In this document: piece by piece, positions 2,702 through 54,716 of the stretch
Numbering within the stretch: position 1 is the first letter of the stretch
How the letters are laid out: every line of letters starts with the position of its first letter
Virus record (IMG/VR): IMGVR_UViG_3300021438_000001
Location: 39,453 to 103,452 of that record
Source: a virus
Lineage: Duplodnaviria > Heunggongvirae > Uroviricota > Caudoviricetes
Strand: one strand, 5' to 3'
Length of the DNA stretch: 64,000 nt
Notes under the pieces: model-generated
What the model saw: only the letters and a program-made list of their open reading frames with translations
Told to the model about the DNA's origin: nothing
The model's database searches: none
Translations under genes and position numbers: made by a program

Positions 2702-3352
2702 ATGAACGTCGCCCAGTATTACAACGAGAACGTGGGCCTCGTCCACGCCGTCACGAAGAAGGGCTTCGCTCGTCTTCAGAAGGCGGGCGTGGCGATGGAC
2801 TATGAAGACGTGTTTCAGGAGATGTCTGTCGTCTTCGTGAAAGCGTGTGAGGGCTTTCAAGCCGACAAAGGCTTTAAGTTCAGCACGTACTTCTTCATTG
2901 CCGCGCAGAACAAGTTGGCGAGCTGGACGAAGAAGATCATCGAGGAGCGCCTTGTCCACAAGGTTGTGAGCATCGAGGAGATGAACCACAACCACGGTGG
3001 CGAGGAGCTTGACCTCGAAAGCATCCTTCCAGGCGACCGCACAACGCCGGAAGACATTGCAAGCGCCAAGCAGTGTGTCGCAGACCTGGCGAAGTCACTC
3101 TCGCCAGTCGCGGCGCAGATCATCGAGTGGATGGTCGAACCCCCGCAAGCTCTGCTGGATGAGTTCAACCGACTGGAAGCTCACGCTGCGTTCGCCCGAA
3201 GCATTGGCTTCGAGCAGCGGTTCAGCGCCCAACTGTCACCGCGCTATGTGGGGCAGTTCTTGGTTCTGTTGGGTGTCAGTGACACTCAAGTCAAATCTGC
3301 CTTGCGTGAGATCAAGTCCTACGCGCAGAACCAAATTGGCAAGTTTTTCTGA
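2702..3352 (+). CDS. sigma-factor-like protein (region-2-like segment)
   Basis: Segment FKFSTYFFIAAQNKLASW resembles sigma70 region 2.2-2.3; translationally coupled to the CobS-like stop. Confidence 0.35.
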   Translation: MNVAQYYNENVGLVHAVTKKGFARLQKAGVAMDYEDVFQEMSVVFVKACEGFQADKGFKFSTYFFIAAQNKLASWTKKIIEERLVHKVVSIEEMNHNHGGEELDLESILPGDRTTPEDIASAKQCVADLAKSLSPVAAQIIEWMVEPPQALLDEFNRLEAHAAFARSIGFEQRFSAQLSPRYVGQFLVLLGVSDTQVKSALREIKSYAQNQIGKFF

Positions 3353-3361
3353 AAGGTAAGT

Positions 3362-4048
3362 ATGGAACTGTTTGAAGGCACACGCGCACCTGAGAACGCA
3401 CCGGCATGTTTCGCCGCACCGAGCATCTTCAGCCGTGATTCGCACGTCTGTCAGGGATGCCCAACCTTCACCCAATGCGCTGACGCTTCGGTGGCTGCGC
3501 TACAAGAACTGCGCAAGATGATTGACGTGAGCGACCTGATGGTTCGCCACTCACGAGCGCGAGAAGTCGCATTGGGGCCAAGCATCAACAAAGCGGCAGA
3601 GACGCCTTCGAATCTGAAGTTTCTCCCCTCGCTCAAGCCGCCTTCGTCGCCCATCACGCGCAAGGTACGCGAGGAGAAGTCGGCATTTGCCATCGACGCC
3701 GACATCCAGACGGTGATCGACGGATTGAACAAGAACCCCGCCACGCTGGTCAAGCGTCTCGCCAAAGCTGGTGTCATCGGACTGGTGCGCGAAGAACTCG
3801 CCGCTGGTCGCAACCCGCTCCAATACGACAAGTGGACTTGGGTAAGCATCGCTTGCGAGAAGCTGACGCAAGGCGGGTTCACAAAACAATCGCTGGTCAT
3901 GGCTTATATGACTAAGCTCGGTTGGAAAGAATCGACCGCCCAATCGCACTTCGTCATCATCACGCCCGCCTTCAAAGCGTTGGGAATCATTGAGGAGACT
4001 GAAGGTAAGTGTGTTGTGAATCCTGCATTGCGTCACGACAATGTATGA
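3362..4048 (+). CDS. hypothetical protein (Cys cluster HVCQGCPTFTQC)
   Basis: 228-aa ORF; RBS AAAGGTAAG before the ATG. Confidence 0.5.
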   Translation: MELFEGTRAPENAPACFAAPSIFSRDSHVCQGCPTFTQCADASVAALQELRKMIDVSDLMVRHSRAREVALGPSINKAAETPSNLKFLPSLKPPSSPITRKVREEKSAFAIDADIQTVIDGLNKNPATLVKRLAKAGVIGLVREELAAGRNPLQYDKWTWVSIACEKLTQGGFTKQSLVMAYMTKLGWKESTAQSHFVIITPAFKALGIIEETEGKCVVNPALRHDNV

Positions 4049-17220: not shown

Positions 17221-17250
17221 CAGTCAGTCACCCGTGACTAGACTATAAGC

Positions 17251-17739
17251 ATGATTGACCCAAATGACTCCGCAGTAGTGATCGAGGAAAGGTGGCGTGT
17301 GCAACCAACAATGGCAAGCAACACGCTGCAAATCTCCATCGACAAGATCGACCTGTACCGCGCCGCTGACGCGCAAATGGCTAACGAAGCGGCGATGCGC
17401 AAGTTGCATCACGCCATTCTGAGAGATACGCCTGGCTGTGCCGGCTGCCAAAACCTGAAGGTCGAACGCACGGAAGACCTGATGCGTATGGCAGACAGGA
17501 TCGTCGTGCGCTGCAAGCACTACGGCATGGTCAACATTCGCTGTCCAGATGGCACAACCTTGGCGCGACGAGGTGACGAGTACGGCGTCCTGAGCTTCGA
17601 AGCAACAGGGCCGGCAACGATGCCTCCAGGCAATGAGAGTTGGCTCGACATCATCCCTGAACGCCAGGTGATCGTGAAGCGGCCAAACCTTATACAGCGC
17701 AGCCCAGATCAGCCTACGACCGCCTCAGACGCTTGGTAG
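17251..17739 (+). CDS. hypothetical protein
   Basis: 162-aa ORF. Confidence 0.4.
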   Translation: MIDPNDSAVVIEERWRVQPTMASNTLQISIDKIDLYRAADAQMANEAAMRKLHHAILRDTPGCAGCQNLKVERTEDLMRMADRIVVRCKHYGMVNIRCPDGTTLARRGDEYGVLSFEATGPATMPPGNESWLDIIPERQVIVKRPNLIQRSPDQPTTASDAW

Positions 17740-17818
17740 CGTCCTTATATGGTAAGTCACGACTGACTGCCGTAGAATCACCGTCCCCCGATTTCTAAAC
17801 AACAACAAAAGGAGTTCT

Positions 17819-20239
17819 ATGAACGATAGTTTTCAAACACCCGCACGGACTTACGCCAAAGGTATTGGTGATGCCGTTGCTGACCGGACAGTGAATCGCA
17901 AGATCACTCGTCCTGTCGAGCCTTATACAAAGACGATTGACCTTCCTCGCCGTGATGACATGGCGCTGGATCATGAAGTTGATGAGTGGTGTAAGTCCAA
18001 TAACCTCGTGATCGAGTCCTATCACGTCAGCTATGGCGACGAGCTGATCGTCCGCTGTGACCTGAAGGTGATCGGCCACGTCGAGGTGGAGAAGTGGGAA
18101 GACGTTGCTCGTCGTGTGGCGACAGGTAACGTGATGCTGCATCCAGAGACTGCCGAGCGTGAGTTCGAGTTCCACGCGATGCACCATCACCTGCGCCAAG
18201 CGTCGATTCTCATGTCCGGTCGCCACCTGCAACACGGTGATGAGAATCAAGCGAGCCGCAACATGGAGGTGTTCACGAACTGCTCGACCGCAGCCTCGAC
18301 CTTCCTGACGTTCTATCTGCTGCTCAACGGCTCCGGTGTCGGTCGCTCCTACGACAACGAAATGATTCGCGCCGACCTGAACAGCTTGCCAATCACGGTT
18401 TGCACCATCGACATGATGCACCCTGATGTGCAGTCAGGCGAGATCGCCGCACTTGACCTGCGTACAGCAAAGCATCTGTATGGCAGCCGCTTCATCGAAG
18501 TGTTCGAAGTGCCTGACAGCCGCGAAGGTTGGGCAAAAGCTATCGAAAAGATGGAAGTTGCCGCATTCAAAGGTCGTCGCAATGAAGTTCTGATTTTGGA
18601 CTTCAGCAAGGTTCGCCATCGCGGTTCGCCAATCGCCGGTATGCAAAACCGTCCTGCGTCTGGCCCTGGCCCAATGATGACTGCCTTGAACAACGTCGCC
18701 AAACTGCGTGACGCCGGTATGGCTCCCTGGCGCGCCGCCATGTACGCCGACCACTACATCGCCGAATGTGTGCTGGTTGGTGGCGCTCGTCGCGCAGCTC
18801 GCATGGCAACGAAGACTTGGAAAGACAAGAACGTGCTGGACTTCATTCATGTCAAGCGCGGTGGCTTCCTCTGGTCTTCGAACAACTCGGTCACTGTGGA
18901 CTCTGAGTTCTGGGCATACGTGAAGGGCGATTTGACTGCGATCAAGGGTGACTACGACCCAGAGGTGCAAGCGCACGCCAAAGCCGTGTTCGACGCATTG
19001 ACTGAAGCTGCCTACTATGACGGTACTGGCGAGCCAGGCATCATTACCGTGGACAAGCTGACTTGGAACGACGAAGGCACTGAGGTGCTGCTTGATGGCA
19101 ATTTCGCTGAGTCCGAGCGTTACAAGCTGGACACCGAAACCCTTGAGCTGACTGCGGTTCTGGCGAAAGCCTGGCTCAACAGCGAATACAAGGTCATCAC
19201 CAACCCATGTGGCGAGATCGTTCTCGGCGCTCTGGGTGGCTACTGCGTGATCGCTGACGTGGTTCCGTTCCACGCTGGCTACCGAGGTGATGGCGCGACC
19301 GCGATCCTGAAGTCCGAATGGGATGACGACGCAGAAGACGCCTTCCGCACCGCGACCCGCGCCTTGATTCGCACTAACCTGATGGACAGCCTGTACTCGA
19401 AAGAGGTCAAGCGAACCAACCGCATCGGCGTTGGCATCACCGGCCTGCATGAGTACGCTTGGGCACGTTTCGGTTACGGCTGGAAGGACATTGTGGATGA
19501 AGTCAAGTCTTTGGACTTCTGGCTCACTCTGTCGCGCTTCAAGCGCGCCGTTCAAGCTGAAGCTGAGAGCTACGCAAAGAGCTTGGGCGTGACGGTTCCG
19601 CACACCAACACTACGATCAAGCCTGCTGGCACCACATCCAAGCTCTTCGGTCTGACTGAAGGCGCTCACCTGGCGTCCATGCGCGAGTTCTTGCGTTGGG
19701 TTCAGTTCCGCAACGACGATCCTCTCATCGACCAGTACCGCGAGTTGGGCTATCCAGTGAAGAAGCTCAAGACCTACTCTGGCACGACCATCGTTGGCTT
19801 CCCCACTGTGCCGACCATCTGCACTCTGGGCATGGGCGACAAGCTGGTCACGGCTGCTGAAGCAACACCGGAAGAGCAATACCAGTACCTGCGCCTGCTT
19901 GAGAAGTATTGGATCACTGGCGTCGAAGAAGACGGCGTGACTCCGCTTCCTGAGCGTGGCAACCAAGTGAGCTACACCCTGAAGTACAACCCCAAGAAGG
20001 TCAGCTTCGAGGAGTTCAAGCGCACTCTGCTGGACGGTCAATCGACTATCCGCTGCTGCTCGGTGATGCCACAAGCTGACACCACAGCCTACGAGTACCA
20101 GCCGGAACAGCCTGTCACCAAGCATGAGTTCGAAATGATCGTGGAAGCGATCAAGGACTCGGAAGAGGTCAAGCAGGACGTGGACTTCGCTCACATCGAC
20201 TGCTCGTCTGGCGCATGTCCGGTGGACTTCAATAAGTGA
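17819..20239 (+). CDS. nrdJ: class II (adenosylcobalamin-dependent) ribonucleotide reductase
   Basis: Active-site NPCGEIVLGALGGYCV motif; C-terminal redox Cys pair CSSGACP; RBS AAAGGAG. Confidence 0.8.
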   Translation: MNDSFQTPARTYAKGIGDAVADRTVNRKITRPVEPYTKTIDLPRRDDMALDHEVDEWCKSNNLVIESYHVSYGDELIVRCDLKVIGHVEVEKWEDVARRVATGNVMLHPETAEREFEFHAMHHHLRQASILMSGRHLQHGDENQASRNMEVFTNCSTAASTFLTFYLLLNGSGVGRSYDNEMIRADLNSLPITVCTIDMMHPDVQSGEIAALDLRTAKHLYGSRFIEVFEVPDSREGWAKAIEKMEVAAFKGRRNEVLILDFSKVRHRGSPIAGMQNRPASGPGPMMTALNNVAKLRDAGMAPWRAAMYADHYIAECVLVGGARRAARMATKTWKDKNVLDFIHVKRGGFLWSSNNSVTVDSEFWAYVKGDLTAIKGDYDPEVQAHAKAVFDALTEAAYYDGTGEPGIITVDKLTWNDEGTEVLLDGNFAESERYKLDTETLELTAVLAKAWLNSEYKVITNPCGEIVLGALGGYCVIADVVPFHAGYRGDGATAILKSEWDDDAEDAFRTATRALIRTNLMDSLYSKEVKRTNRIGVGITGLHEYAWARFGYGWKDIVDEVKSLDFWLTLSRFKRAVQAEAESYAKSLGVTVPHTNTTIKPAGTTSKLFGLTEGAHLASMREFLRWVQFRNDDPLIDQYRELGYPVKKLKTYSGTTIVGFPTVPTICTLGMGDKLVTAAEATPEEQYQYLRLLEKYWITGVEEDGVTPLPERGNQVSYTLKYNPKKVSFEEFKRTLLDGQSTIRCCSVMPQADTTAYEYQPEQPVTKHEFEMIVEAIKDSEEVKQDVDFAHIDCSSGACPVDFNK

Positions 20240-46369: not shown

Positions 46370-47230
46370 ATGACTGTTTTTCGATGCAACAAACGACAAG
46401 CAAAAACATACCTTGGCCAGACCTCAAAACGACCGCTAAAACGAAGCCAAAAAGCAATCAATATCACCGACCTCAGACAAGCAGGAAAAGAGCTTAAAAA
46501 CGATTCTATAAGGTCGGCCTGTAAGCGCGAACCTCAAGGCCAGAACCCTAAGCAACCAGACGCAGGCCACCGAAACCTAAAGCTACCGGAGCAGGCCAGG
46601 AACCGGAACCTAGAACTCCCAAAATCCCCGCGACAATTCAATCTATAAGCCTAAGAACAATACATAAGTAATTAACGCCAGAGAAGAAATCCCCAAAGCC
46701 CCAAAGCTCGGTCCCGAACAGAATCAGGAACCGGCACGGAGTACGGCAGCAAGGCTGAATAGAGCTTCATGGCACCGAGCAACCCAGACGACCAAAAGCT
46801 GCAAGGCATAGGAAACGCTCAAAGCCGAACTCCTAAGGAACCAGAGTCAAAACCCAATCAAGAAACGCTAAGGAATAAACCAAAGCGAATCCAGCCCCAA
46901 AAGCAACATCGGCAACCAGAACAGCTATAGGAAAACACCAAACGCAACCAGACCGGAATCAGGCAACAGCTACAGGAAAAACAATCTCGTCACACAACAG
47001 GAGAACAACGACACGGAACCGGACAACGACCACAAAGCGCATAGACACAAGGAACAGGAAGATCAATCACACATAGGGAATGAATTAAGAGAGGATCAAG
47101 AAACATAGATAGGAGAGAACAATGAATGAACGGAAAACGCACCAAAGATGCACCAAATAGGGGTGAAGTAATCCCTCGACGAAAAACGCTTCGAAATGCC
47201 AAACCTTACACATAAAAAATTCGCCCGCGA
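46370..47230 (+). other. A+C-rich, T-depleted non-coding tract with GGAACC(G/A)G-like periodic motifs
   Basis: Read directly: long runs such as caaccagaacagctataggaaaacaccaaacgcaaccagaccggaatcaggcaacagctacagg; no credible ORF. Confidence 0.5.
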
Positions 47231-47584
47231 ATCGCCTAGGCATCCCACAACGCCTAGGAACCATGCGGGTTTGCGGGGCAGGGTACGGCTCCAAGGCTGA
47301 GTACGGCCGACCGGCTGAATAACGTCCTAGGAGGTTGAGATACGGCTCCAAGGCTGAATGTTGGACGTTGGCGGTATAAGAGTGCATCGCCCTATGTATA
47401 AGTTCCCCTATAAGCTCCTAGGCATCCCTAGGCGTCGCCCTATAAGAGTCCCTATAAGGTTTTGGCGTTCGCCCTATAAGGTTAGGCAACTTGCATGGAG
47501 ACTTTGTATAAGGTTGATTAGGAACGATCTTTTTCGCTTACAGTAAAAGCACTGAGATTTTTCAGTTCAACGAAAGACGTTCCT

Positions 47585-47854
47585 ATGAACATACTCGACG
47601 CCTGCAACCTAACCGACGAAGAAGCAGACACCGCTGTCCTACTCGTCAACACCTTCGGTCACTGCGTACAGGAAGCGAACGAAGAAAACATTTATTACTT
47701 CACACCAGACTTCATGTTGGAAACCATCGCAAATGCGTTGGCCGCACAACACGCTGCAAAGAACCTTCGACCTGAGTTCTACCGACGAACCGCAAACCTC
47801 CAAGTCAAGCTGCTACGTCATCAGGCCGATTGGGGAAAGCTCAAATCCGCCTAA
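47585..47854 (+). CDS. hypothetical protein
   Basis: The only clean ORF in the gene-poor region; CTTGCAtggagacTTTGTATAAGG promoter-like motif ~90 nt upstream. Confidence 0.35.
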   Translation: MNILDACNLTDEEADTAVLLVNTFGHCVQEANEENIYYFTPDFMLETIANALAAQHAAKNLRPEFYRRTANLQVKLLRHQADWGKLKSA

Positions 47855-48080
47855 GACCATGAACCGAGCAGGCCACGCTCGGTTTTTCGTATCCAAACAC
47901 TCCCTAGGCATCCCTAGGCCAGACATGACCTTCACGCCTAGGCCGTAAGCATCGGTTCCTAGGCCGTAAAGCTTCGTCATCAGGCCATCTCATTGGAGAC
48001 TTGCCAGGCCACATGAAAAACAATCAAAAGTCGTGTTACATTGCAATCACTCGATTTTGAGTGATCAAAGAAAGCGTACT

Positions 48081-48332
48081 ATGAACTTCCGCCAATCAAC
48101 CTTCGTCTACACCATAGCAACAACCATCATTGGATTCGTTCTCGCAGCGTTGTGTGCGTTCGCACTCAGCTCGGAGACTGGTGGTGGTTACTTGCACATC
48201 TTCGGATTGTTCTTCTCAGGTGGACTGGTCATCGGTTCCTGGGTAAATGCTTTGCACGTTCTCGGTATGAGTGACTTCGCCGAAACCGACGAGTTCGGCA
48301 TGACGTACCCCAAAGTCGGTGAAACCGCATAA
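48081..48332 (+). CDS. small membrane protein
   Basis: 3 TM segments. Confidence 0.4.
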   Translation: MNFRQSTFVYTIATTIIGFVLAALCAFALSSETGGGYLHIFGLFFSGGLVIGSWVNALHVLGMSDFAETDEFGMTYPKVGETA

Positions 48333-48357
48333 GTCATCAATGACATAGGAGAACATC

Positions 48358-48546
48358 ATGAGCATGATTCAACCAGCACAACCAACCCCAACGAACCGCA
48401 TTCCTGAAGACAAGCGATTCGACTTCGCTGACACCTTCGAGGATCAGGAAGCGTACTACGACGAGATGCAGGAAGAGGTTGAGCTTCACATGCTTCGTCA
48501 GGGGCACGGAGTTCGGCGATCTCCCCGTCTGTACGACGAACGATGA
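48358..48546 (+). CDS. hypothetical small acidic protein
   Basis: TAGGAGAAC RBS after an ATAAGTCAtcaaTGACA box. Confidence 0.4.
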   Translation: MSMIQPAQPTPTNRIPEDKRFDFADTFEDQEAYYDEMQEEVELHMLRQGHGVRRSPRLYDER

Positions 48547-48821
48547 TCGAAGACAGCAGGGTGTGAGGAGAACTCACACCCTTTGTTCGTTGAAGACGCT
48601 GCCTAGGGATGCCTAGGAGTACGGCAAGACGGCTGAACAGAACCGCCTAGGAAGAGTGATCGACAGCCTCGGAGTACGGCTGGACGGCTGAATGAAATCG
48701 CCTAGGAGTACGGCTGGGTGGCTGAGTAGAGCAGCGTAGGAGGTCGGGGAGGTCAGGGCGGTCGGTGACGTTGGAGTCGCCGAAACGCGGATGAGAATCG
48801 TCCTCATCCAACTCTCCTATA

Positions 48822-48950
48822 AGACCCAAGACCAGTCTCCTAGGAGAGTAGTCTCCTATAAGACATAAGAGAAGTCTCCTAGGAGAGTAGTCTCCTGTCT
48901 CCTAGGAGAGTAGTCTCCTGTCTCCTATAAGACTTGATTGCCTGCCCGTG
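48822..48950 (+). repeat. iteron-like cluster: 3x palindrome TCTCCTAGGAGAGTAG interleaved with 3x TCTCCTATAAGAC
   Basis: Direct reading of 48,822-48,950; adjacent to an AT-rich stretch. Confidence 0.6.
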
Positions 48951-48984
48951 CGTTTACCATACAATCAAAACCCCTGCAAGCATT

Positions 48985-49035
48985 TGACGATTGAAAAAAT
49001 CAATCAGCACGATTGAAAAAATCAATCACAAAATG
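48985..49035 (+). promoter_or_regulatory. tandem palindromic operator-like sites GATTGAAAAAATCAATC (x2)
   Basis: Two identical 17-bp palindromes 20 bp apart in the AT-rich leader of the 49120 gene. Confidence 0.5.
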
Positions 49036-49119
49036 ATTGTTTTCTGGTTTGATTGTGTTATAGTTCAGTCATCGGTTGATTTTGACCGATACAACAAACC
49101 AACTTTTAAGAGGTACAAC

Positions 49120-49761
49120 ATGAGCAAAGCAAACGCAAACACTAGCAAAGCGAAGCAAGGTAAAAACGCAGTAGCAGCAAAGACCGACTATCAAGCGTTG
49201 ATCTTAGCAGCTATTCAAAAGCGAATCGACAATGCGGACAATGACAATCAACGCGACACGCTGCAAGCTGAATACAAGTTTTTCAATGACGCAAACGGTG
49301 CAGCTATTCTAAGCAAGTGCAGCGAAATTCAAGGTTTGAACCTTGCAGCATTGGTGCAACAAATTGCAGTTCTCAAGACAGAATCAAAGAGTGATTTTCT
49401 CGCAGTGTATGCACTGCAAAAGGTACGCAAAGCACTGTATGCACTCGCAAACAATGCGCGTTCATCGTTTGATGGTTATTCTAACTCTATCATGTTCAAT
49501 CTGGTGAAGCTGCAAACGGTGAACACCAAAGAGACGCGCATGAGCATTTGCAAAGCTATCGAATATAGCGAAACCGAACAAGTGCAAGCACTCAAACGCT
49601 TGCACAATTGCAGCGAATCGACCGCAAGCACTCAAGCAAGTAGCACGCGAATGATGCTCAAAGCGTTGAACCTTGCAAACGTGATCAAGTCAAAAAACAA
49701 TGACGCTATCACGCTTCAAGACAATGACGCAGCGCGCATGATTGTGACAATGTACGCTTAA
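49120..49761 (+). CDS. hypothetical protein encoded in a low-GC island (Ala/Asn/Lys-rich, alpha-helical)
   Basis: RBS AAGAGG; base composition markedly AT-richer than the rest of the window. Confidence 0.45.
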   Translation: MSKANANTSKAKQGKNAVAAKTDYQALILAAIQKRIDNADNDNQRDTLQAEYKFFNDANGAAILSKCSEIQGLNLAALVQQIAVLKTESKSDFLAVYALQKVRKALYALANNARSSFDGYSNSIMFNLVKLQTVNTKETRMSICKAIEYSETEQVQALKRLHNCSESTASTQASSTRMMLKALNLANVIKSKNNDAITLQDNDAARMIVTMYA

Positions 49762-50242
49762 CAGTGAAACCGATAGAGCGTGACACAATCACGCTCTATC
49801 AATGAAACCTATTGGAGATTGATAATGATTGATTTTATTGATTGTGCAGTAATTGCAATCGGTGCAGTGTACGTGATAGCGTGTCTCTATCGACCAGATG
49901 TGATGCTGTAATGTGAAAAAGAATACCGAAGTCCTAGAGATTTTCGGTTGCCTAGGAGGCGACCCCTTCCTCGTTCCGACCTCTCCCGAGCGCCCCTTAT
50001 ACAGCCAGGCAGACCCCTGAGATCACATCCTTATACAGCCGGCACACATAATGTAAAACGTACTTTGCAAAAGCGCCCCCAAGTGACAAATACGCTTTAC
50101 GTTAGTTCAGAATCCGTAAGACCGAGCGGAAAATGACCCGATGGGGACATTTCAGGCCCAAATCCCCACGTTCGCACCGAAAATGACCCGATGAGGACAT
50201 TTGCTTATCCTTATACAAGCAAAAAATTTCGAGGCGAGTGGG

Positions 50243-52679: not shown

Positions 52680-52725
52680 ATTGTGTTTGCTAAGTATACA
52701 ACAGCAAACCTTATACAAGCAAAAC
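52680..52725 (-). promoter_or_regulatory. promoter-like TTGCTTGTATAAGG motif plus TTTGCTgttgtatacttAGCAAA palindromic operator (- strand)
   Basis: Reverse-complement reading of 52,680-52,725; lies directly 5' of the RHH-like gene. Confidence 0.45.
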
Positions 52726-53056: not shown

Positions 53057-54598
53057 TTAGGCGGTAGCGGCGCTGAAGATTCCGTAGTCGAAGTCAGCCT
53101 CATCCGGAAGCACGTTCTCCCCGAAACCCTCGGTATCGGTGACGATCTGGCGGCGCTGCTGCGCGTGAGACTTCAGGTAGGTGTTGAAGTCGTCTTGGAA
53201 GTCGAGAATGAACGCGCAGTTCGGCCCTTTCTTCTTGGCTCGAAGACCGCGACCGATGCGCTGGCGCAGCGCAACCTCGGCCTTACCACCGCCACCCAGA
53301 ATCACCATGCCGACTGCGGGAACGTCTACACCAACGTCCAGAATGGTCGAACCGATCAGAACGTCAATTGCACCAGTGGCGAGCTGTGAGAGTGCTTGCT
53401 TGCGCTCCGCTTGGTCATTGTCACCGTCGATGAACCGCGCACGTACACCTGCTTCGAGGAGCATGTCGCGCAGAAGGTGTCCATGCGCTTTCTGCTGGAT
53501 CAGAATCATGGTCGAGAGCTTGTGGCGAGCTGCTCGGGTCGCTTCGGCAATCATGATTGCGTTGCGCTCGACGTTCTGGACGATACCCAGACGGTAGGCA
53601 GCCTGCCAGGGCGTGCCGCGCAGCAGATGCTGAGGCTTTTGCTTGAGCTTGGCGTACTTGAAGATCGGACGAGCAAGAATGCCTCGGTCGATGAGCATCT
53701 TCTCGGTCACTTTGATGCCGATTGAGCCAAACGCAGCCATCAGACGCATGTTGGACTCTTCGTTGTCCTTCATGAATGGCGTGGCGGTCAGCGCCAGGCG
53801 GTAATGAGCATTCTTGCAGTGGCGAAGAATCTCGTAGTAGCTGTTGCCGGATGCCTCGTGCGCTTCCTCACCGATCACGAACTCGAATTTGCCCAGAAGG
53901 TCGATGGTTTGCTGACGGATCGCAGCCTGCTTGTTCTGCTGCTCGATGGTGTCGTCGGGGTTGGGTTCCTGAAGACGTGAAACGAGCGTCTGAACCATGC
54001 CAACCGACATTTTCTTGATGTACTGGCGTCCGTCCGCACCCGTGAAGCCGAATTGACCGTCGCCCAGTACCGAGCAGGGGATGCCGAGATCGTTCTCGAA
54101 CGTGTCCTTCATTTGGTACATCAGAATGCCGCGAGTGGTCAAAAACAGAGTAGGGCGGTTGATTCGCATGAACGCCAGGCGCGCAATGCGTGACTTGCCA
54201 CCGCCTGTGGCGACCTGAGCAATCATGGAGCCGTGCTTGCACAGCCGGTTCACCACTTCCATCTGATAGTCGTAGCGCGGGTCTTCGGGGAATGCGTCAA
54301 CCTTGGGGTTCTCGGGGCCTGTTGGCAGCGGCAAAGGCTTGCGAACGCGATTGACCTTGTAGCCCTCTCGCGTGAGCTGCGCCGCCACGTAGTTGACGAA
54401 GCCAGCAGGGAAGGTGCCGGTGCGGAAGTCAAAGAAGGACGACCGACCGTCCCAGTTGCCTGTTTTGAACGCCCCAGTATGTTCCGCACCCTCGACTCGG
54501 TAAGAAACATACTTCTGGACGGCCAATTTTGCTTGACGTGTCGGCTCATGCAGCTTGGCTGTCGTGGCGTTGTAGGCAATCGTTACGATTTCAGTCAT
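53057..54598 (-). CDS. SF2 DEAH-box DNA helicase
   Basis: Walker A VATGGGKSRIA, DEAH box IGEEAHEA, motif III LTATPF, arginine finger QRIGRGLR; AAAGGAA RBS; track start at 54625 over-extended. Confidence 0.8.
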   Translation of the reverse strand: MTEIVTIAYNATTAKLHEPTRQAKLAVQKYVSYRVEGAEHTGAFKTGNWDGRSSFFDFRTGTFPAGFVNYVAAQLTREGYKVNRVRKPLPLPTGPENPKVDAFPEDPRYDYQMEVVNRLCKHGSMIAQVATGGGKSRIARLAFMRINRPTLFLTTRGILMYQMKDTFENDLGIPCSVLGDGQFGFTGADGRQYIKKMSVGMVQTLVSRLQEPNPDDTIEQQNKQAAIRQQTIDLLGKFEFVIGEEAHEASGNSYYEILRHCKNAHYRLALTATPFMKDNEESNMRLMAAFGSIGIKVTEKMLIDRGILARPIFKYAKLKQKPQHLLRGTPWQAAYRLGIVQNVERNAIMIAEATRAARHKLSTMILIQQKAHGHLLRDMLLEAGVRARFIDGDNDQAERKQALSQLATGAIDVLIGSTILDVGVDVPAVGMVILGGGGKAEVALRQRIGRGLRAKKKGPNCAFILDFQDDFNTYLKSHAQQRRQIVTDTEGFGENVLPDEADFDYGIFSAATA

Positions 54599-54604
54599 CA
54601 AATT

Positions 54605-54640
54605 CCTTTTGTGTAAGGCTTGCAAAGTCTTTGTATAAGG
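54605..54640 (+). promoter_or_regulatory. promoter-like CTTGCAaagtcTTTGTATAAGG motif in a divergent intergenic region
   Basis: Same composite motif as at 47492; followed by a GTCAgcaaTGAC palindrome. Confidence 0.4.
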
Positions 54641-54716
54641 ATTATAGTTCAGTCAGCAATGACTAACAAATCCATTAGGCCCGTCCGTGAGTAATTCCAA
54701 AAACATCAAGGTGGAG

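Follow-up and report, generated by a model that had tools for sequence, protein, structure and literature searches.

A phased and conserved TATAAGG box in a family of phage-plasmid-like genomes, tentatively read as an operator- or iteron-like element over sigma-70-type promoters

Several plasmids and phages repeat short DNA words at their control regions. The R1 ParR/parC system and the pSM19035 omega heptads are built from contiguous 11-bp or 7-bp repeats which serve as both operator and centromere; the C1 operators of phage P1 are asymmetric 17-bp sites, single or paired, dispersed, and overlapping promoters such as that of the ban helicase operon; theta-plasmid iterons (P1 incC-repA-incA, F, R6K) are typically 17-22 bp long; and the late promoters of T4 (TATAAATA, gp55) and the extended -10 middle/late promoters of Thermus phage P23-45 stand as single copies before late genes genome-wide. 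Here we compare with these systems a repeated word, TATAAGG (the box), found in a 64-kb stretch of a Caudoviricetes genome (IMG/VR record IMGVR_UViG_3300021438_000001), which we call the window. A sequence-only reading of the window had joined this word to an upstream CTTGCA and proposed a distinct promoter class with an abnormally short spacer, dependent on a phage sigma factor or an activator.

Like R1 ParR/parC and pSM19035 omega, for which cooperative binding by a small protein is known, the boxes are short direct repeats on one helical face which flank or overlap a promoter core; unlike them, the 7-bp boxes lie 12-34 bp apart and are also dispersed singly, and no ParM or ParA partner was found here, a 99-aa ribbon-helix-helix (RHH)-like protein being a candidate binder only. 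Like the P1 C1 operators they include dispersed asymmetric sites overlapping promoters of replication and maintenance genes, whereas the boxes also form phased arrays, no C1-like repressor was found in the window, and this phage is uncultured. Theta-plasmid iterons resemble them in being phased direct repeats that flank a winged-helix gene, but the boxes are shorter, there is no Rep_3 homology, and neither an unwinding element nor DnaA boxes were seen by reading. As in T4 and P23-45, an A/T-rich, -10-like word without a -35 occurs in a phage which encodes a sigma-family protein; in contrast to those promoters, TATAAGG is regional, arrayed, phased and also found antisense within genes.

The 9-mer TGTATAAGG is present in eight copies in the 64 kb, on both strands, against 0.09 expected from shuffled sequences, and its core TATAAGG in 14 copies against 0.89 expected. 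Of the 37 TATAA words in the window, 32 continue with G; TATAAT occurs three times and TATAAA not at all. A gene map covering 89% of the window leaves 11% intergenic, and in that part lie six of the eight 9-mers and 11 of the 14 7-mers; this strong enrichment is the opposite of the equal frequency inside coding regions that the sequence-only reading had named as telling against it, and its view of a real, conserved cis-element concentrated in regulatory regions is upheld. A literature search for the 9-mer and its core yielded nothing but primers and unrelated work. The copies in the window are these:

47505-47513, + strand: TGTATAAGG box A, the last of seven TATAAG boxes, 72 nt 5' of the open reading frame (ORF) at 47585
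54632-54640, + strand: TGTATAAGG box B, in the spacer of a ParB-side promoter and at about +1 of a helicase-side promoter
52709-52717, - strand: TGTATAAGG box C, just past a terminator (52759-52740), with the 99-aa ORF starting 51 nt further on (52658)
50209-50217, - strand: TGTATAAGG box D, in the loop of an inverted repeat (TTTGCTT/AAGCAAA), directly after the end of a small-gene operon
49995-50037, - strand: tandem GGCTGTATAAGG boxes E and F (9-mers at 50029-50037 and 49995-50003), 34 bp apart
17921-17929, - strand: TGTATAAGG box G, antisense within the class II ribonucleotide reductase gene
17688-17696, - strand: TGTATAAGG box H, antisense near the 3' end of the ORF 17251-17739
47375-47481, + strand: (C)CCTATAAG(G/A/C) boxes, the upstream part of cluster A
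47407, 47439, 47451 and 47473, + strand: CCCTATAAG copies in that upstream part
48816, 48855 and 48924 (span 48816-48931), + strand: three CCTATAAGAC boxes within tctcctaggagagtag repeats

All six copies listed in the sequence-only reading exist, at positions 0-8 nt from those it gave, and it missed the two - strand copies at 17688 and 17921. Its - strand coordinates 52722-52709 and 50222-50209 were exact and those of the two GGCTGTATAAGG copies 1-4 nt off, while the composites it placed at 47492-47516 and 54611 lie at 47490-47513 and 54619-54640. The cluster of extra TATAAG boxes near box A proved correct, all four CCCTATAAG copies being present, and the three CCTATAAGAC copies are to be added to it. 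The description of the boxes as standing at operon heads suits 47505, 54632 and 52709; it does not suit boxes D, E and F (49995-50217), which no ORF follows, or the antisense copies near 17.7 kb. A further copy at 17743-17749 (- strand) is probably no true box, as relatives conserve there CTTATATGG, which can be read as the + strand -10 region of the ribonucleotide reductase promoter.

The boxes are regional. Among relatives (L001 and so on denote relatives' loci compared with the window), 29 of 30 CobS-sigma-PolIII loci hold 0-1 boxes per 13 kb, the exception being L084 with five; no box was found in the 10 kb of structural genes examined, where promoters of the TTGACA-N17-TATAGT type occur instead.

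The boxes are also phased. Distances between same-orientation TATAAG neighbours peak at 12, 22-24 and 32-34 bp, and opposite-orientation pairs show no such peaks. In cluster A the seven + strand TATAAG words start at 47375, 47397, 47409, 47441, 47453, 47475 and 47507, that is at offsets of 0, 22, 34, 66, 78, 100 and 132, which fit an 11.0-bp period with a resultant of 0.96, a value equalled by 6 of 20,000 random sets. Direct repeats in one orientation, separated by integral helical turns, are what is looked for in operator- or iteron-type repeats.

So too is overlap with a promoter core, and this was found at the ParB/helicase and small-gene operon promoters. The relevant elements are:

54620-54648, + strand: promoter TTGCAA-N17-TATAGT toward the ParB-like gene at 54687, with 9 of 12 consensus matches
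54641-54669, - strand: promoter TTGTTA-N17-TATAAT toward the UvsW-type helicase, with 10 of 12 consensus matches
54652-54663: GTCA-N4-TGAC palindrome at about +1 of the ParB promoter, a member of another, genome-wide motif class
52722-52717 and 52698-52693, - strand: small-gene operon promoter TTGCTT-N18-TATACT, overlapping box C, the same in L001
48938 and 48960, + strand: promoter TTGCCT-N16-TACAAT of a 213-aa winged-helix protein gene, the last CCTATAAGAC box lying 7 bp upstream of its -35

The two promoters at 54.6 kb, located by a sigma-70 consensus scan, are divergent and overlapping. The ParB promoter is kept as TTGC(A/C)A-N17-TATAGT in L001-L009 and L011, with TATAAGG filling part of its spacer, so that relatives read CTTGC(A/C)A-N7-9-T(G/A)TATAAGGATTATAGT-N3-GTCA-N4-TGAC across the helicase/ParB intergenic region; in L027 the box sits at a slightly different position in this spacer, and in L001 and L011 a further box precedes the -35 by 2 nt, 23 bp away from the other. 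More distant relatives have TTGCCA-N17-TAAAGT or TAGTAT followed by ATAAGTCA-N4-TGACTTA, without a box. As these keep the promoter and lack the box, the box is a separate, added signal, and since TATAAGG falls within the spacer of a canonical promoter, the spacing described as too short is no real promoter feature. The impossible-looking -35/-10 distance is two overlapping signals read as one: the CTTGCA at 54.6 kb is the -35 of an ordinary promoter, its TTGCAA pairing with TATAGT at a conserved 17 bp, and nothing conserved was found at -35 distance upstream of 177 distinct box copies. The composite CTTGCA-N5-7-TTTGTATAAGG itself holds for two of the eight copies; two - strand copies have TTGC as part of TTTGCTTG, and the other four have no TTGC.

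Measured against sigma-70 promoters, the TTGCA-to-TATAAG spacer is 8-10 bp rather than 16-18 bp, and the final -10 base is G in all box copies rather than T. Nor does the box follow the extended -10 pattern of a conserved TG one base upstream of the hexamer, for in the window TG abuts the hexamer. A sigma-54 reading of TTGCA was rejected by inspection, no GG standing at the required distance.

The box is conserved beyond this phage. In relatives of 46-61% GC, TATAAGG occurs about 20-fold above first-order Markov expectation and at the same three kinds of site. The counterpart of the 47407-47513 cluster consists of cccTATAAGGTT triplets, spaced 32 and then 23-24 bp, in L001, L005 and L008, and of a single box in L011. 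The arrangement at box C is repeated in L001, the box being absent from L005, L007 and L008. Variants of the box are TATAAGGA, TCTAAGGA, ACAAGGA and GAAAGGGTG, all with A and then AGG, and both array copies vary jointly within one phage (TCTAAGGA in L010, ACAAGGA in L035, GAAAGGGTG in L055), a joint change that fits a trans-acting reader. In the proximal box of L010, L015, L016 and L045 the second base of TATAAG is replaced by C or G. Flanking preferences among the 177 copies are weak only (not-G, T, G/C before the box; A, T after it), and the TG before the box is not conserved, relatives carrying CC, TC, AA, AG or GG.

The copies within genes are informative in their own way. Box G is written in rare codons (relative codon use: CCT 0.25, TAT 0.19, ACA 0.11) and is peculiar to this phage, relatives encoding the same or similar residues by common codons (CCC-TAC-ATC or similar) with no box. 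Box H likewise uses rare codons (CTT 0.12, ATA 0.01). In relatives CCTTATA survives at the corresponding site but is read in a different frame; in L095, L104 and L108 it has become the doubled, palindromic CCTTATATAAGG, and in L097 it lies on the opposite strand. Judged by these comparisons, selection acts on the DNA word whatever the frame and, at the box H site, whatever the orientation, a behaviour more in keeping with a binding site than with a promoter. The motif is thus genuine, conserved and functional; the regional distribution, the 11-bp arrays, the antisense copies within genes and the change of orientation at a homologous site speak against the distinct promoter class that had been proposed.

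The most widespread setting of the box is an array beside a conserved module:

49925-50001, - strand: fixed-length module of about 75 bp, comprising TATAAGG (50001-49995), N17, GGAACGAGGAAGG (49977-49965), a variable stretch and TCTCTAGGACTTCGG (49940-49926)

In most relatives that retain this module, 2-4 boxes recur at intervals of 33-34 bp to form an array. The last array box lies 17-18 nt from GGAACGAGGAAGG and 64±1 nt from TTTCTAGGACTTCG, and across 23 relatives the distance from box to CTAGGAC is steady within about 1 nt. The module, which has three conserved blocks, is recognisable even in relatives of about 40% GC (L023 and L041, whose helicase is 58% identical to that of the window) and out to Acinetobacter baumannii phage-plasmids. 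In the window the module includes a hairpin (ACCGAA/TTCGGT) followed by a T-run, and GGTC(T/G)G stands about 11-15 nt after each of boxes E and F.

A structured small RNA downstream of the array was considered and rejected, there being no conserved fold and no Rfam match: RNAalifold on 22 sequences gave 0 pairs and no consensus fold, the single-sequence fold of this region was unremarkable (z-score +1.2), and Rfam gave no match in 46.3-50.4 kb at E<=1 and, for the window at gathering thresholds, tRNAs only. The hairpin around the conserved loop is present in only about half of the relatives, with shifts of register. We treat the module as a probable DNA-level element.

Taken with the phasing and the promoter overlaps, this leads us to favour, tentatively and at somewhat short of an even chance, the reading that TATAAGG(A) is a 7-8 bp operator- or iteron-like box for a phage-encoded, sequence-specific DNA-binding protein, placed over sigma-70-type promoters. 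A candidate protein would bind cooperatively to boxes of like orientation, set on the same helical face by spacings of about 11 bp or multiples of it. In this lineage the boxes lie on or beside such promoters at three places: within the ParB spacer, which is also about +1 of the helicase promoter; across the small-gene operon's -35; and, for the 213-aa gene, a few bp ahead of the -35. Binding there could control the access of RNA polymerase, most simply by repression, to a gene block with early, replication or maintenance functions. The array beside the module, with its 2-4 boxes and fixed distance, is the commonest and may be the ancestral location, and could act as a high-affinity nucleation site for the same protein. 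What the sequences show is the motif, its conservation and phasing, its overlap with promoter elements and the selection on it within genes; that a protein binds it, and the sign of any regulation, we infer. The dependence on an extra factor that had been suggested for the motif is compatible with this protein-binding reading, although the promoter architecture on which it was first built is unsupported.

Several points weigh on the other side. None of the candidate proteins is linked to the box (the recognition helix of one is nearly invariant and another is missing from L011); most intergenic clusters are oriented like the downstream gene, as promoters would be; around the conserved module, and ahead of the ORF at 47585, TATAAG is the sole -10-like word; the invariant AAGG core, preceded by A, could act as a -10-like element in another register; and shared ancestry of the arrays partly inflates the phasing counts.

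The candidates for a reader are as follows. The gene at 49120-49761 (+ strand) encodes the 213-aa winged-helix protein and has TATAAG arrays on both sides; its putative recognition helix, STASTQASSTR, is nearly invariant in the aligned family (A2, one member of which is from E. coli), and because the box varies while the helix hardly does, we do not favour it. The 99-aa protein has an RHH-like pattern by eye, Pfam having neither confirmed the RHH fold nor given any family match, and is an unlikely reader as L011 has no detectable homologue despite its 17 boxes. The two ParB-like proteins are also candidates. For all four, no co-variation or presence/absence link to the box was found. Upstream of the 213-aa gene, ACGATTGAAAAAATCAATCA occurs twice (48987-49028), with an inverted partial copy downstream (49826-49847); this may be the winged-helix protein's own operator.

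The phage also encodes a sigma factor, as had been supposed:

2702-3352, + strand: sigma-70-family factor of 216 aa, Pfam Sigma70_r2 at 27.7 bits, its profile matching SigA/RpoD region 2

By analogy with T4 late promoters and gp55, TATAAGG could be a -35-less -10 element read by host core RNA polymerase with this sigma, and the arrays would then be tandem promoters for a short non-coding transcript ending at the hairpin and T-run near 49925. We think this unlikely, though it deserves to be kept in view. A structural model of the sigma matches complete sigma28 and sigmaA chains, pointing to two domains, the second apparently sigma4-like, and its -10-reading region is unlike that of housekeeping sigmas, having FSTYFFMAAYNRLN where they have FSTYATWWIRQAI. 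Boxes at 52709, 47507 and 54632 follow a terminator and precede genes in the same orientation, and the last array box keeps its fixed distance from a block which in the window ends in a - strand hairpin and T-run. To our knowledge all sigma-70-family promoters have T at the final -10 position, and a G replacing it would exclude the host sigma. The sigma is present in all relatives recovered through CobS and, at 29% identity, in the A. baumannii plasmids. It is absent from E. coli phage Cyrano, in which box enrichment is absent genome-wide (6 observed against 8 expected), and this joint absence could be read in favour of the sigma. As the second motif class is likewise not enriched in Cyrano, presence and absence cannot tell which motif, if any, the sigma reads.

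Against such promoters, seven boxes 12-32 bp apart cannot all initiate transcription, and the box is missing from nearly all sigma-proximal loci and from the structural genes examined, which would be expected targets of a sigma. The TG is not conserved and the second base of TATAAG varies in the four relatives named above; the orientation flips at the homologous in-gene site, and copies lie antisense within genes. The apparent sigma4-like domain predicts a -35, and none was found; nor does the downstream module have a conserved RNA fold. A related proposal is that TATAAGG, or its AAGG core, is the -10-like element of a promoter class private to the sigma of this family, its tandem copies driving a short conserved non-coding transcript which would control plasmid-like maintenance or the lytic switch; this too we hold improbable.

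The sigma gene is always followed, in all relatives found, by a 228-aa ORF with an N-terminal Cys cluster (CxxC...C) (the pair spans 2702-4048). The pair is absent from Cyrano, and the 228-aa product may be an anti-sigma or a partner.

To return to binding sites, the boxes might instead be iterons or centromere repeats of a phage-plasmid origin or partition site, as in the P1 RepA iterons or R1 ParR/parC, their overlap with promoters being secondary autoregulation. We consider this distinctly doubtful. Phased direct repeats in a 3.6-kb, largely non-coding region with other repeat families, arrays on either side of a winged-helix gene, two ParB-like genes adjoining box B, and A. baumannii plasmids of about 107-114 kb as the nearest plasmid-collection matches are all consistent with it. 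On the other hand, the 213-aa protein matched neither Rep_3 nor any other initiator; reading 49.9-50.3 kb by eye, with no formal search made, revealed neither DnaA boxes nor an AT-rich unwinding element; GC skew as an origin marker was uninformative; and the single boxes in genes and promoter spacers are left unexplained. By published typing, A. baumannii phage-like plasmids of the pABTJ2 type have a Rep_3 initiator gene (PMC9927589). If the related plasmids are of this type, a conventional initiator is already present and the module need not be a plasmid origin.

That the boxes are ordinary or extended -10 promoters (TGnTATAAT type) of the host housekeeping sigma is very improbable, for although TGTATAAG resembles TGnTATAAT and TTTACA-N16-TATAAG can be read at box 50029, an invariant G replaces the final T, the TG is one base off register and not conserved in relatives, and the exact 7-mer is kept across relatives of 40-61% GC, unlike the degenerate TAnnnT of the phage's host-type promoters.

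The surroundings of the boxes contain further features which we record here. Converging on the module and sharing its hairpin is a 28-aa hydrophobic ORF (MIDFIDCAVIAIGAVYVIACLYRPDVML; 49826-49912, + strand); similar small hydrophobic ORFs occupy the same place in L001, L007 and L008, a layout which resembles type I toxin-antitoxin loci. In Cyrano (OV696614, 100610-100920, - strand) three TATAAGG words within 230 bp are followed by ttttatttCTAGGACTT, upstream of a 219-aa ORF with no detectable homology to the 213-aa protein; this site may be a distant vestige of the array module, or a coincidence. Two 42-nt direct repeats, aaatgtcc(c/t)catcgggtcattttc..., lie at 50111-50202 (- strand) between box 50209 and the tandem boxes, and text resembling their 'catcggg..attttc' stands ahead of the arrays in L001 and L007. 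The window has 17 CCTAGG palindromes, and every one falls within 47235-49951 (2.7 kb), many of them as CCTAGGAGTACGGCnnnnnGGCTGAAT units (7 copies) or as tctCCTAGGagagtag units alternating with tctCCTATAAGAc, in one repeat family. Directly upstream of cluster A, the + strand at 46400-47200 is T-poor for about 800 nt, with an AT skew of up to 0.44 and no convincing ORF. Elsewhere, TATAAGCATG at 17244 and 32523 contains an ATG which is a candidate start codon in both cases, so the TATAAG there cannot be a -10 for the following gene.

The other motif class, the palindrome (A)TAAGTCA-N4-TGAC(TTA), is genome-wide and gene-oriented, with about 20 sites in the window (for example 1399, 7785, 12834, 21641, 24105, 42678, 48333 and 62047; also L093 13949). 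In several promoters, including the TTGACA-N17-TATAGT of the capsid gene, GTCA-N4-TGAC is centred near -41.5, the position of a class II activator; other palindromes lie at +1, in the spacer or against the ribosome-binding site. A recurrent -35-region word, TTG(C/A)AAGTCC (1420-1450, 27443, 28442, 32423, 40232, 41477), has an AAGTC core in common with the palindrome half-site and, as the reverse complement, with the conserved TTTCTAGGACTTCG block.

The window as a whole has a GC content of 55% and a phage-like gene content, arranged as follows:

1-47 kb, every gene on the + strand: CobT/CobS-like, sigma-70-family, PolIII alpha, gp32 and 5'-3' exonuclease products; further, an SbcCD-like pair, a RuvC-like resolvase, class II ribonucleotide reductase and nine tRNAs
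46.65-50.24 kb (3.6 kb): mostly non-coding and rich in repeats, with several repeat families besides the boxes
after 50.24 kb, - strand block: the UvsW-type helicase (53057-54598) and the small-gene operon
from 54.7 kb: two ParB-like genes, an ATPase, thioredoxin, terminase and portal

A near-identity search of GenBank phages with 44-58 kb gave no match. The nearest cultured phages (Rhizobium RHEph10-like phages, Stenotrophomonas phages and SSU5-like phage-plasmids) reach a helicase identity of only about 49%, while many IMG/VR relatives fall at 55-88%, several of them represented by contigs 105-114 kb long. In the plasmid collection, A. baumannii plasmids of 107-114 kb, with a helicase identity of 58%, come nearest. 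Scans of genome collections for a host gave no match for the 213-aa protein and, for the helicase, one mis-binned metagenome-assembled genome only. On these matches, the box family is one of phage or phage-plasmid genomes of roughly 105-115 kb, and its Acinetobacter relatives are plasmids.

The analysis removes a false lead, the abnormal -35/-10 spacing, and leaves in its place a box and a roughly 75-bp module, both conserved in a large phage-plasmid-like family, most of it uncultured, that extends to clinical A. baumannii plasmids. If the phage sigma does read the box, this would be a new sigma/promoter pair common to many phage-plasmids of 105-115 kb, those of clinical A. baumannii included. 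If instead, as we favour, the boxes are operators of one regulator, they would mark the genes under its common control (helicase, ParB-like, small-gene operon and winged-helix protein) and may give a handle on the switch between maintenance and lytic growth in this family.

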